DNA of 64,000 nucleotides, taken from assembly GCA_051294905.1 (NCBI GenBank), contig CM119371.1, positions 26,042,001 through 26,106,000 of the forward strand, read 5' to 3'. How positions within the stretch are numbered: the first letter of the stretch is position 1; each line of letters starts with the position of its first letter. The stretch is from Botryllus schlosseri. Lineage: Eukaryota. The position numbers and the translations under genes are program-made. Shown here piece by piece: positions 8,661 through 23,895 of this stretch. The notes beneath the pieces are model-generated. The model did not search any database. It was not told where the DNA came from and worked only from the letters and a program-made list of their open reading frames with translations.

Positions 8661-9795
8661 GCAGTACCTTGTTTTCTGTTTCACGGTCATACAAATCGGG
8701 CGCAGTTCAGATTAGCAAGAAATTGAGCAGTTTCATTTTCTTGGTACTGAGCTGAAACGCGATAACCACTGGTCAGGCGTAATCATCTTCCACCTACAAA
8801 GGATGTTTCATTTTGGTATGGCTGCATATCAATTGTGCATATAAGCTTGTATTTCGACAGTCGATGAAGAGAATACGTGACCCGATTGTTAAATATGTAT
8901 GTTGTCTGTTTTAGGAACACCAGAAGTGAAGTATATCAACAGTTTGATGTTAAAGAAAATATTATCCATGACGCAGCGTGAATAATGATTTTACCCGCTG
9001 CGTGTCGAAATAGCGTAGTGGTCGATTCCGCAGCTGCAAGACCAATGGGTTGCGGGTTCGAGTCCGACTGAGTTCGACTGCAAAATTCTTACCCAAGTGT
9101 CGCAGGTTCATCTAGGCTCCTATTTTTCATATAATCCGTATAAGCGATGCCTTCTAGAAGCTCAGAAGTGGGCAGTGCTACAAGTCAGTAGCTACGGGGC
9201 ACAAATGACGGAAATCATCATCGTGTAAATTACCGTATTAGTAGTCTACAACCACCATGAATATCACAAACACGGAAACAAACTCTACCCGCCATGATAT
9301 CGACTCCAGCAGGACATATTTTCGATATATTGAGATATGTAAATTTCATTCTTAATATTTTCAATCTTGCAAGCGAACCATCTTTTAGGGCGGCAATAAT
9401 ACAGGATTTGTCGTTATCGGCTAACGCTCTCAAGGGGGATTTGGTGTATGGAAATGTGAATATTGATTACGACGGTGCGATCTTGGACGGTTCGCCGCGG
9501 TAAACGATCCTTCATATCAGGAAACAATCATACGCAGTCTGAAAATATAGTCGAACATTCATACCCTGCTACAATGCCAAGCACAAAGCGTTATTGAAAA
9601 AAAAAACATTGCGACGAAGCTGCGATCTTCATGCATCGTACAAAGACATAACAATAGTCACGCATACGCACGCACACTAGAATACTAGTCAGATTATCGG
9701 ACCACGACCTAACATATCGATCTAGCTTTCCGTCCCATGTCACCTCATTTTGTCGCTTGCCTTTCATATTCTCTGCTTTAGTTTTCATTCGGTGT
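8661..9795 (+). repeat. Left long TIR of inner element
   Basis: Colinear inverted match to 22762-23894 with only scattered substitutions; the same ORF-track peptides appear on opposite strands. Confidence 0.95.
9004..9283 (+). mobile_element. tRNA-derived SINE (inside left TIR; mirrored at 23272-23551)
   Basis: Pol III A box TAGCGTAGTGG (9011-9021) and B box GGTTCGAGTCC (9055-9065); body shared with dispersed copies; A/C-rich tail. Confidence 0.8.
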
Positions 9796-10208
9796 AGGTC
9801 TGCCTTCCATCTGTCTGTCTTGAAGTCAACTATAATAAAATTGACCAATCCTGATTTATGTCGGCAGAAGGAGTTTTTATACAATCTTAAAATTTTCCAT
9901 TACCGCTATTTGTCTGTCTGTTGTCTTTTGTGTATTGTATAATTTGATTTTCTCTCGCTTCTTGTTATGACTACCGGTACAGCTGACTTTGCCAAGCATT
10001 CATTTTGATTATAGTATTATTACGTCATACTTTGCCAATTGGTTTTCGTTTGAATCGCTTTCTGTATGCTTGTTATTGTGCCGTTAACTCTTGATAACGG
10101 GCACACGAAAAGTCTTCCGAGTTACTAAATTTTTTTTACTGCAGTCTGTTGCCAAAGGATTACCGCGACATGACGCTATTAAGTTTCAATGTATGACGTC
10201 ACACAATT

Positions 10209-21075: not shown

Positions 21076-22761
21076 AACAGTCTCTCATTTTGGGAAACTA
21101 TTTGAGAAATAGATCGTCCTAAAAACAGACAAAACCATTACTACGAATCTTCGATAGCAATTCACATATTGTCAACACTAATGTCATTTGCTGTGAATTC
21201 AAAACCATAGGTGAATATTGAAAGGTCATGAAGAAACAGCTCGTTTTCTGGTTAATTTTTAATCTTAGGTGCTGACTTTTTCCGGCAAATTACCACCGCC
21301 AAAGGAGCGATACAAGACACTTAATGTCAATACAAAAACGAACGGGCAACAAAATTAGCAGGACTTGGCGTGCAACGCTCTCGATACAGCAGCGTCTGAA
21401 TTACAAGGCATCGGTGCTGTATTCCAAGTCATATATAGGAGTCTCGTACAATAATGTACCGCGGTTTCCGCTGAATATTTGAGACATACATTTTTTGACC
21501 ATCACGCTCTGCGAGAGACCATATTTTAATGTTCAACGAAAATGATCCCCAGAACAATAATAGTCGCTGAAGATTTCCACAAACGCGGCAGATATCAAAA
21601 CGAATAAGACATCTCATCAACAGAAGATATATTGGTGGTGAACAACAACTTTTCACGTGCCACTTCCAAGAGACTTCCCGTGCAGAATTTGCATGATATC
21701 ATTATCAATGATACGAAAAAGTATATCGTGTGATACGCCTACTTCTTCCGACCGACGGAGTTACTTAATTGTGCATAGGCTACTTACTATCCAGAGGTTT
21801 GGATCCGGATTGAAACCACTCGCCATATGGAGTCATAAAAATCTGGTGATGCTGTAGAGCCGTAAAACTAGCTGGCAAACCAGCGATTTGTTATTGCCAG
21901 TAACGTTCGTAGCATTGTACTGTAGGTTTCGTATGCTGCGACTATACCAATCAAAGTTTTACGGCTTCCACACTGGAAACTAGTATAGAACCTATGACTT
22001 TCGTTGATAAATTACCTTTTAGTGGCGAGAAGCGTATGTTTTCAGTAGGCCTTACTCGAAATAAATCGTCTTTTACTACTCGACTAGAATCGTTAAATTT
22101 ATTACTTGTTTCAGATTCGGGTACACGAATCATTGTGCCTAGCCCTACTCGTGACTCGAAGATGGTTGGTGACTTGATCCCAACACTGGATAGGACTCGA
22201 GTCAAATCGAATCATTTTCCATTCACCACCGAGTCCAACTCAGGATTCGAATGTTCAACTCCGAATCACGGTGTTGAGACTCGAGTCCGAGTCATTGTGC
22301 TCACTGCGCATTGTTCATTCTCGGATCCAATCCGGTTCAACTCACGTTTTTCAGAACTCTGTTTAGGTGTTATTGAATGCCTCGCATTCATATTATAGTA
22401 CTTTTCCTCATTTTACACAGATTCTAGTCCTACCTTACAAACACCAGTACTGATGGACGAAATATCGAATGTGCTAGAGACTGTTCTTCCAGTCTTCTCC
22501 TATCTATTTTACTAGTCTTTTTTTAAATATTCTCACCCAATAAAAAATCGAAAATATAGACCTCAAACGTTACTGTATTGCAGGTGTTCTTGGGCGAATT
22601 TAGTGTGTCAGTGTCAGTTTATTTATAGTTTTATCGTTTCAAAACACTTCAAAACTGCGATACAATGAAATTTTGGAAGGTGTCGAAACGAGTTGGAGCT
22701 TGGAGTAGTCTTTGAAATCAAACACCTACCTGGGCCTAGGTAAAGTGGAGAAGAGGAATGC

Positions 22762-23895
22762 ACAGCGAATGAAAACTAAAGCAGAGAATATGAAAGGCAA
22801 GCGACAAAATGAGGTGACATGGGACGGAAAGCTAGATCGATATGTTAGGTCGTGGTCCGATAATCTGACTAGTATTCTAGTGTGCGTGCGTATGCGTGAC
22901 TATTGTTATGTCTTTGTACGATGCATGTCGATCGCAGCTTCGTCGCAATGTTTTTTTCCAATAACGCTTTGTGCTTGGCATTGTAGCAGGGTACGAATGC
23001 TCGACTATATTTTCAGACTGCGTATGATTGTGTCCTGATATGAAGGATCGTTTACCGCGGCGAACCGTCCAAGATCGCACCGTCGTAATCAATATTCACA
23101 TTTCCATACGCCAAATCCCCCTTGAGAGCGTTAGCCGATAACGACAAATCTTGTATTATTGCCGCCCTAAAAGATCGTTCGCTTGCAAGATTGAAAATAT
23201 TAAGAATGAAATTTACATATCTCAATATATCGAAAATATGTCCTGTTGGAGTCGATATCATGGCGGGTAGAGTTTGTTTCCGTGTTTGTGATATTCATGG
23301 TGGTTGTAGACTACTAACACGGTAATTTACACGATGATGATTTCCGTCATTTGTGCCCCGTAGCTACTGACTTGTAGCACTGCCCACTTCTGAGCTTCTA
23401 GAAGGCATCGCTTATACGGATTATATGAAAAATAGGAGCCTAGATGAACCTGCGACACTTGAGTAACAATTTTGCAGTCGAACTCAGTCGGACTCGAACC
23501 CGCAACCCATTGGTCTTGCAGCTGCGGAATCGACCACTACGCTATTTCGCCACGCAGCGGGTAAAATCATTATTCACGCTGCGTCATGGATAATATTTTC
23601 TTTAACATCAAACTGTTGATATACTTCACTTCTGGTGTTCCTAAAACAGACAACATACATATTTAACAAACGGATCACGTATTCTCTTCATCGACTGCCG
23701 AAATACAAGCTTATATGCACAATCGATATGCAGCCATACCAAAATGAAACATCCTTTGTAGGTGGAAGATGATTACGCCTGACCAGTGGTTATCGCGTTT
23801 CAGCTCAGTACCAGGTAAATGAAACTGCTCAATTTCTAGCTAATCTGAACTGCGCCCGATTTGTATGACTGTGAAACAGAAAACAAGGTACTACT
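22762..23895 (-). repeat. Right long TIR of inner element
   Basis: Reverse complement of 8661-9795; ends ...CAAGGTACTACT at 23895. Confidence 0.95.

Follow-up and report, generated by a model that had tools for sequence, protein, structure and literature searches.

A dead arm of a palindromic, IAP-carrying Maverick-ended family in Botryllus schlosseri, with a FReD gene as probable bystander

Introduction

Mavericks, or Polintons, are recognized by a 5'-(AGT)2//(ACT)2-3' end motif, terminal inverted repeats (TIRs) and target-site duplications (TSDs) that measure 6 bp, as set out in the accessible text of Barreat and Katzourakis (2021, PMC8097293). One stretch of the genome of Botryllus schlosseri, analysed here over its full 64,000 nt (the window, G000:C1:26042001-26106000), contains inverted repeats that a preliminary description took for the TIRs of a 15.2-kb non-autonomous Maverick at 8661-23895, which had captured a gene with a fibrinogen-related domain (FReD) and an inhibitor-of-apoptosis (IAP) gene and may move both. 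A better reading, held with good though not full confidence, is that the window contains the long-decayed remains of a Maverick/Polinton satellite, palindromic and non-autonomous, with an IAP gene as cargo, and that the FReD gene beside them is a bystander. The family in question, family 1, resembles Mavericks in its end motif, 6-bp TSDs and TIRs, and it has a partner on contig C12 with a protein-primed DNA polymerase B (pPolB), an rve integrase and a predicted double-jelly-roll capsid protein. It differs from them in that the IAP family lacks the core genes and its "TIRs" make up the whole element, of which the window holds half.

Host-type cargo has been described in related elements. In the accessible text of the respective sources, nematode Mavericks carry host cargo beside the left TIR (Widen et al., bioRxiv 10.1101/2022.07.12.499685), and adintoviruses encode Bcl2 and IAP homologs (Starrett et al. 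2021, PMC8502044). The likeness to the nematode case lies in the presence of host-type genes within Maverick-ended DNA, and the difference in that an intronless IAP gene occurs here in otherwise gene-less palindromic satellites. With adintoviruses, family 1 has in common that anti-apoptotic genes are tied to the Maverick/adintovirus lineage; theirs are accessory genes of complete viral genomes, whereas here the IAP gene travels on satellites and is lacking in the C12 partner.

Two other systems are similar in architecture. Linear DNA viruses, adenovirus among them, give rise to defective copy-back (or snap-back) genomes, in which one end is duplicated in inverted orientation and which consequently possess two identical origins. 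Family 1 resembles them in the inverted duplicate of one end and in a total size near that of its helper, and differs in being integrated in the germline, with many transpositions flanked by TSDs and a selected gene; copy-back itself is here a proposed origin. Foldback (FB) transposons have arms of tandem repeats and a 9-bp TSD. Like family 1 they have inverted arms of great length that enclose hardly any unique sequence or none, but the arms considered here are complex and gene-bearing, the TSD has 6 bp, and the ends are common with a Maverick.

The inverted repeats are internal arm segments

The near-identical inverted repeats of ~1.13 kb seen in the preliminary description are real. The two arms, 8663-9795 and 22762-23892, align in inverted orientation over 1133 nt at 97.8% identity with 2 gaps, which is far above chance. 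Searches of the 495.5-Mb assembly (219 contigs) scored the best candidates only, so that all copy counts given here and below are lower bounds. They revealed many genomic relatives of the 1.13-kb segment, mostly in inverted pairs spaced 7.6-10.4 kb apart. Homology runs outward past the claimed terminus in 17 of 18 aligned copies (the right window copy and 16 elsewhere), and the single copy that breaks at this point is the left window copy. Tested for termini at the repeat ends, the claimed element 8661-23895 shows none. The AGTAGT sequence that had been read as a terminus occurs in the right copy only, which starts with AGTAGTACC after ctc and reads ctcAGTAGTACC together with its flank; the left copy starts with AGTACC after ggc (ggcAGTACC with its flank). 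The 1.13-kb repeats are internal pieces of an arm, without transposon termini.

A 6-bp direct repeat around the 15.2-kb unit is absent, the left flank being ccctgg(c) and the right flank gagatg; lacking a TSD, 8661-23895 is no mobile unit. The notion of a 15.2-kb Maverick with 1.13-kb TIRs that moves FReD and IAP together draws on a genuine inverted repeat and on a family that is Maverick-ended and does carry an IAP gene. It has become extremely improbable, since the repeat ends are internal points of an arm that continues for 2.45 kb, no TSD exists, the left side has no terminus, and FReD is missing from all other mapped elements. What survives of the proposed Maverick-derived vehicle for immune genes is thus a Maverick-ended family carrying IAP, with boundaries other than those first assigned.

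Some sequence features accompany the repeats. A tRNA-like stretch with the B-box-like sequence GGTTCGAGTCC lies within the 1.13-kb segment (9000-9070 and 23480-23550), and it may account for the 4045 first-look candidates of the corresponding genome search. ARAGORN finds no tRNA gene in the window, this stretch at 9000-9070 included, and Rfam gives no RNA family in 8000-27000 at the gathering threshold. The outer end of the left copy adjoins a palindrome at 8431-8662 that resembles a miniature inverted-repeat transposable element (MITE), and its inner end adjoins a high-copy repeat of ~350 bp. The MITE-like palindrome is rich in GACTCGAGTC, has arms at 8497-8560 and 8574-8637, and has a relative at window 43681-43837.

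The window holds a dead solo arm

Comparison with a complete copy on C3 reveals what the window contains. Positions 20343-26341 are collinear with the C3 copy at ~90% identity up to the last bases of that element, and the family arm extends outward beyond 23892 to 26340. The true end of the family reads AGTAGTATAG... in the window, at 26321-26340; it is one of 5 unpaired family termini genome-wide, and the flank beyond it is TCTTTG. In the same comparison with the complete C3 copy, no further family sequence was found to the left of 8663. Two subterminal tandem repeats lie inside the window arm, at 24299-24898 (unit of ~345 bp) and 25478-25899 (~305 bp).

The IAP gene of this arm had been described as a two-BIR remnant on the minus strand, and that description holds. 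Pfam detects BIR in two stretches on 20408-20929 (E 4.6e-20), and residues 1-63, 57-224 and 223-246 of the 407 in the intact family protein are matched in three different frames; the sequence has two frameshifts, is cut off at 20343 and lacks BIR3. The window copy is dead, a solo arm with a frameshifted and truncated IAP. It had also been said that the interior carries no recognizable pPolB, integrase, ATPase or capsid sequence. This agrees with the Pfam scans, in which only Fibrinogen_C and BIR were matched among 120 minus-strand open reading frames (ORFs) located in 9800-18058, with a minimum length of 24-28 aa, and all 39 window ORFs of at least 95 aa outside that minus-strand stretch, short plus-strand ORFs being left out.

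Family 1 consists of palindromic IAP elements

Intact family-1 elements are near-perfect palindromes of 12-15 kb with ends AGTAGTAGAG. The C3 copy, 13.8 kb long, is 99.65% identical to its own reverse complement, and across 11 elements arm-to-arm identity within a copy is 99.5-100%, compared with 84-93% between copies. Searching the genome with the family 20-mer AGTAGTAGAGAAATGGTGGA (at most 2 mismatches) gave 18 forward and 23 reverse matches, and a reversed-pattern control gave 0/0. These 41 termini form 18 pairs and 5 solo ends, that of the window among the latter. The TSD of 6 bp is perfect in 9 of the 11 copies inspected and has one mismatch in the other 2, so that the paired copies with 6-bp TSDs which the preliminary description proposed to look for do exist. 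IAP is present in 15 of the 18 terminus pairs, and 12 of these 15 are 12.1-15.3 kb long, as against 16.4 kb for the helper described below. The IAP palindromes have Maverick termini in common with this autonomous element and lack its genes.

The family-1 arms measure 6.7 kb and surround an asymmetric central loop of 31 nt; out of 9 copies compared, 6 have this loop, in one orientation or the other. The recurrence of one loop shows that the palindrome had a single origin and afterwards multiplied in its mirror-image form. The two loop orientations were also considered as flip/flop evidence for hairpin replication; this was rejected, as in a palindrome they reflect the orientation of insertion only.

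Palindromes trouble long-read assembly and are one of its known failure modes, so the inverted copy in the window, or the palindromes in general, might be chimeric joins of long reads. Such an artefact is hardly credible here. The two copies in the window disagree at 2.2% of positions. On many contigs, dozens of palindromes are each set apart by a TSD of their own and by private substitutions and nested insertions in both arms, and the window stretch is covered piecewise by short contigs of another sample.

An autonomous Maverick on C12 has the same ends

A full-length Maverick with the same terminus, which had been named as a check on the original proposal, was found at C12:15841851-15858285. 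This element of 16,435 bp is non-palindromic and has only its terminal 373-484 nt in common with the palindromes, at 97-99% identity. Its features are those of an autonomous Maverick/Polinton, namely pPolB, an rve integrase, a double-jelly-roll capsid protein as modelled, and (AGT)2 TIRs with a 6-bp TSD. The polymerase ORF of 1323 aa has 13 homologs at E<=1e-5, 4 of them with PF03175 (best of those E 1.6e-133); the ORF itself has no match by direct Pfam scan or by PDB sequence search. A genome search with PF03175 was empty, and its control was silent as well, which is ascribed to the C12-type polymerase being too divergent for the profile. The integrase matches PF00665 at E 1.7e-10, with 41.5 bits against a cut-off of 32.6.

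The capsid assignment comes from structure prediction. An AlphaFold2 (AF2) model of the 424-aa protein, built from an 81-sequence alignment, reached pLDDT 94.6 and pTM 0.90. Foldseek matched it to capsid proteins of an iridovirus, EhV-201, Sputnik (E 3e-15, TM 0.64), PBCV-1 and mavirus, with E 1e-12 to 1e-15 for Sputnik, PBCV-1, iridovirus and mavirus, and PF21738 is found on 4 of the 81 members of the alignment. The predicted fold is that of a double-jelly-roll major capsid protein. Weaker candidates are a putative P-loop ATPase ORF, with sub-threshold matches only in Pfam and the PDB sequence search, and a putative protease in a small ORF with a weak match (E 0.17) to the S273R cysteine protease of African swine fever virus (ASFV). 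The C12 element contains no IAP. Three consecutive ORFs at its sequence positions 3233-5260 (303, 283 and 126 aa) have a common repeated domain and an end motif like ..LLR..P., and belong to no Pfam family.

The TSD of this element, AACACT, becomes perfect only when an additional terminal ACT is assigned to the element. ACT is repeated once more at the right end than AGT is at the left, and the extra triplet suggests slippage of the terminal trinucleotide. Polymerase copies of the C12 lineage (94-100% identity) lie inside all three 20-mer-terminus pairs without IAP, and a further one lies in C7:27262920-27279295, a pair whose ends diverge more. The genome contains no fewer than three pPolB lineages (356 candidates), whose identities to the C12 ORF are 94-100%, 59-63% and 37-38%, many of the candidates having uninterrupted frames.

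The IAP cargo is intronless and conserved

In each intact arm a single IAP gene without introns encodes three BIR domains in an uninterrupted frame of ~407 aa. Among 68 ORFs of at least 45 aa from one arm, Pfam found BIR in two IAP pieces and nothing in the other 66. Pfam detects no RING domain in the arm; 5 of 8 homologs carry PF13920. A RING-like stretch 3' of BIR3 was seen by eye, split over two frames and missing its last cysteine pair.

A genome search with the IAP protein gave at least 104 matches (437 candidates), every one a single uninterrupted frame. By our own count among the matches listed, ~40 at 83-100% identity are family 1 and form convergent pairs, and ~60 at 68-72% identity form divergent pairs. 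When one arm was taken from each of nine family-1 elements, seven IAP frames were open and two had one stop. The dN/dS values range from 0.07 to 0.66, with a median of 0.25 and none reaching 1, over the 32 of 36 pairs with dS>0.02, which are not independent of one another. This shows the sequence signature of purifying selection on the family-1 IAP frames.

The nearest named proteins are ascidian cellular XIAP-like or BIRC7-like proteins with BIR plus RING (39-43% identity), while relatives on viral contigs, four contigs of 110-133 kb, reach only 28-31%. Judged by these identities, the cargo stands closer to the cellular proteins of XIAP-like type than to the IAPs of viral contigs. Introns divide the C-terminal BIR of bilaterian XIAP-like genes, according to the accessible text of PMC13159474. 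Since this BIR has none here, the cargo is a processed-type copy and not intron-retaining DNA. The earlier idea that the element captured intron-retaining genomic DNA is contradicted by the actual cargo, an ORF uninterrupted across all three BIRs. Word searches of the open-access literature, supplements excluded, found no report of palindromic or non-autonomous Mavericks carrying IAP.

A second IAP-carrying family

A second IAP-carrying family with long arms has ends in common with another Maverick lineage. Its reference element, C9:18084046-18098472, is 14.4 kb long and has arms of 6.6 kb at 99.83% identity around a unique centre of 1.2 kb. The ends read AGTAGTATAGG, the TSD GGCCTT is perfect, and each arm has an open 394-aa IAP pointing outward. 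There is no DNA similarity between this element and family 1. The 24-nt terminus of family 2 (at most 3 mismatches) was found 16 times forward and 15 times in reverse (control 0/0), which gave 12 pairs. Among the five of these whose content was viewed, two, C1:36302815-36319232 and C7:19068222-19084640, are 16.4-kb elements with a different polymerase lineage, 62-63% identical to that of C12, and three contain IAP pairs. Most family-2 IAP pairs fall outside the 12 terminus pairs and presumably have more divergent ends.

The FReD gene between the window copies

The 10.5 kb between the two window copies would be ordinary chromosomal DNA riddled with transposable elements, three FReD exons included. 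At least five unrelated repeats occupy it, at 9796-10143, 11644-12943, 14753-15662, 16059-17033 and 18052-20102, and the repeat at 16059-17033 is a very young transposon family. The 350-bp repeat stands beside the 1.13-kb segment in no other family copy compared, the window stretch being the only one of 30.

The FReD coding sequence lies on the minus strand (Pfam Fibrinogen_C, E 8.8e-21). The preliminary description called it an intact, intron-containing gene, and of this the introns can be upheld. Three minus-strand exons join in frame into 169 aa, from VFQRR to the stop, without an internal stop, and cover Fibrinogen_C positions 44-219; a search of 13411-20340 revealed neither a signal peptide nor the exon or exons that would encode positions 1-43. 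Two candidates for a 5' exon, at ~14953-14988 and ~17290-17352, were discarded, as they have stops just upstream, no donor and the wrong cysteine spacing. The second intron has a GC donor (cag followed by gcaagc, window 10896-10903, after the exon 11003-10904). Three RNA runs compared with 9700-21200 are usable neither way as to expression: 98-100% of the reads fit only partly and derive from repeats, no splice joints occur, and the depth over the FReD exons is 0-1.5.

FReD genes form a large family in this genome, with at least 150 matches including that of the window (393 candidates), dispersed genome-wide. Among the matches listed, the nearest paralogs (64-76% amino acid identity) form a cluster at 28.9-29.55 Mb of C6. 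The exon-plus-intron stretch has DNA paralogs with 84-93% identity on C6 and C14, at loci that lack family termini; FReD paralogs are located at C6:29.54 Mb and C14:1.007 Mb. When coordinates were compared by eye, the other 149 last-exon matches listed all fell outside the 34 complete elements mapped. On C12 one match is separated from a solo end by 9.5 kb, and chance predicts ~0.8 such cases. The claim that FReD is cargo finds no support in these comparisons, and the FReD sequence between the window copies is most likely a bystander, a member of a large dispersed family.

The orphan left copy needs an account of its own. It is 97.8% identical to the right window copy and at most 93% identical to any other genomic copy, and for that reason the left copy and the right arm are traced to one element. 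The segment 8663-9795 would then be either the last remnant of a lost sister arm or a patch made by repair from the surviving arm. Taken further, a once-complete palindrome may have acquired FReD-bearing DNA in its interior, either prior to insertion or following it, and then lost the left terminal 2.45 kb and most of the left arm, in which case FReD would at one time have lain within a Maverick-ended element.

Several points weigh against the bystander reading and on the side of such uptake. In orientation and order the orphan copy fits a sister arm, and it is closest to the right arm. The spacing of the two copies, once ~5.6 kb of recognized repeats is subtracted, is ~7.4 kb, compared with 7.5 kb in intact palindromes. 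In three members (C14, C5:23.99 Mb and C15) the ends and TSDs are preserved around large non-palindromic stretches, either unique centres or insertions, which demonstrates that arms can have foreign DNA between them. The wider reading of family 1 is open to challenge on two further counts. Homogenisation of the arms could equally come from gene conversion, and mobilisation in trans, replication and packaging by a helper are suggested by shared ends and similar sizes. Uptake of FReD DNA is nevertheless unlikely, since the window contains no left terminus, unrelated repeats adjoin both ends of the orphan copy, the 5' part of the FReD gene is missing, and paralogous FReD DNA occurs elsewhere outside elements. 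The likeness in spacing and the three members with unique stretches are the reasons why it retains a minor share of the probability.

Among these members, the C14 element (C14:25293402-25318890) has intact family-1 ends, the TSD AACGTG and a non-palindromic centre of 13.4 kb. Within it lie a single IAP and a Ser/Thr-rich ORF of 183 aa whose tail is hydrophobic.

Table 1. Coordinates of features in the window
Feature	Position	Strand	Basis
Solo arm of palindromic IAP-carrying Maverick-ended element (family 1), truncated inside IAP	20341..26340	-	collinear with C3 arm
True family terminus AGTAGTATAGAACTGGTGGA	26321..26340	-	20-mer search, 2 mismatches to family 20-mer
IAP remnant, BIR1 and BIR2 only	20343..21084	-	Pfam BIR and match to intact family IAP
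Internal arm segment ("right TIR" of the preliminary description)	22762..23892	-	copy alignments and collinearity with C3 arm
Orphan inverted copy of internal arm segment	8663..9795	+	alignment to 22762-23892
FReD exon, Fibrinogen_C profile 44-80, canonical ag..gt	13311..13407	-	Pfam and splice sites
FReD middle exon, ag acceptor, GC donor	10904..11003	-	in-frame joining
FReD last exon, Fibrinogen_C profile 108-219, ends at stop	10209..10521	-	Pfam and in-frame joining
Very high-copy repeat of ~350 bp adjoining orphan copy	9796..10143		5490 first-look candidates, 86-89% identity
High-copy repeat of 1.3 kb inserted in FReD intron	11644..12943		~40 copies, 86-95% identity
Young high-copy repeat, ~975 bp	16059..17033		97-98% identical to >25 copies, many contigs
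High-copy repeat of 2.05 kb	18052..20102		~40 copies, 89-94% identity

Proposed origin and propagation

In the reading of family 1 as satellites of a Maverick, the mirror shape, which formed once and was then propagated, would have arisen by copy-back of an end fragment. The satellites were most likely integrated in trans by the integrase of the helper, as shared ends, TSDs and similar size suggest, and they were perhaps also copied by its protein-primed polymerase. Adenovirus and phi29 initiate replication by jumping back at a reiterated terminal sequence. Repetition of the terminal AGT and the varying number of ACT triplets in the C12 element fit jump-back initiation and would thereby point to protein-primed copying. 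The size of the satellites may lie near that of the helper because of packaging, and their arms may be kept alike through a folded-back single strand or through gene conversion. By analogy with viral IAPs, the cargo probably delays the death of cells in which elements are active.

Taken together, the two IAP families could be mirror-image satellites with genes against cell death, which form a virus-satellite system copied and integrated by helpers, sized for packaging, suppressing apoptosis and driving the expansion of IAP genes. This broader picture is put forward tentatively, as a possibility that falls well short of the confidence placed in the reading of the window.

Biological significance

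For the window itself the outcome is deflationary, a broken repeat beside a bystander lectin gene. For the genome, the IAP-carrying elements provide a concrete mechanism at the DNA level for the large, dispersed and intronless expansion of IAP in this genome, with more than 100 frames. Two surveys, in their accessible text, attribute intronless dispersed IAP copies to retroposition, and one of them reports an enrichment of DNA transposons in the neighbourhood of IAP genes but names no vehicle (PMC13159474, PMC7831173); neither Maverick nor Polinton is mentioned in the accessible text of the two. Palindromes of this kind inflate IAP gene counts and are hot spots of rearrangement. The C12 element and the palindromes would represent animal Maverick helper-satellite pairs in which a selected anti-apoptotic gene is found on the satellite and not on the helper, and with them the question of what cargo genes do for Mavericks becomes testable.

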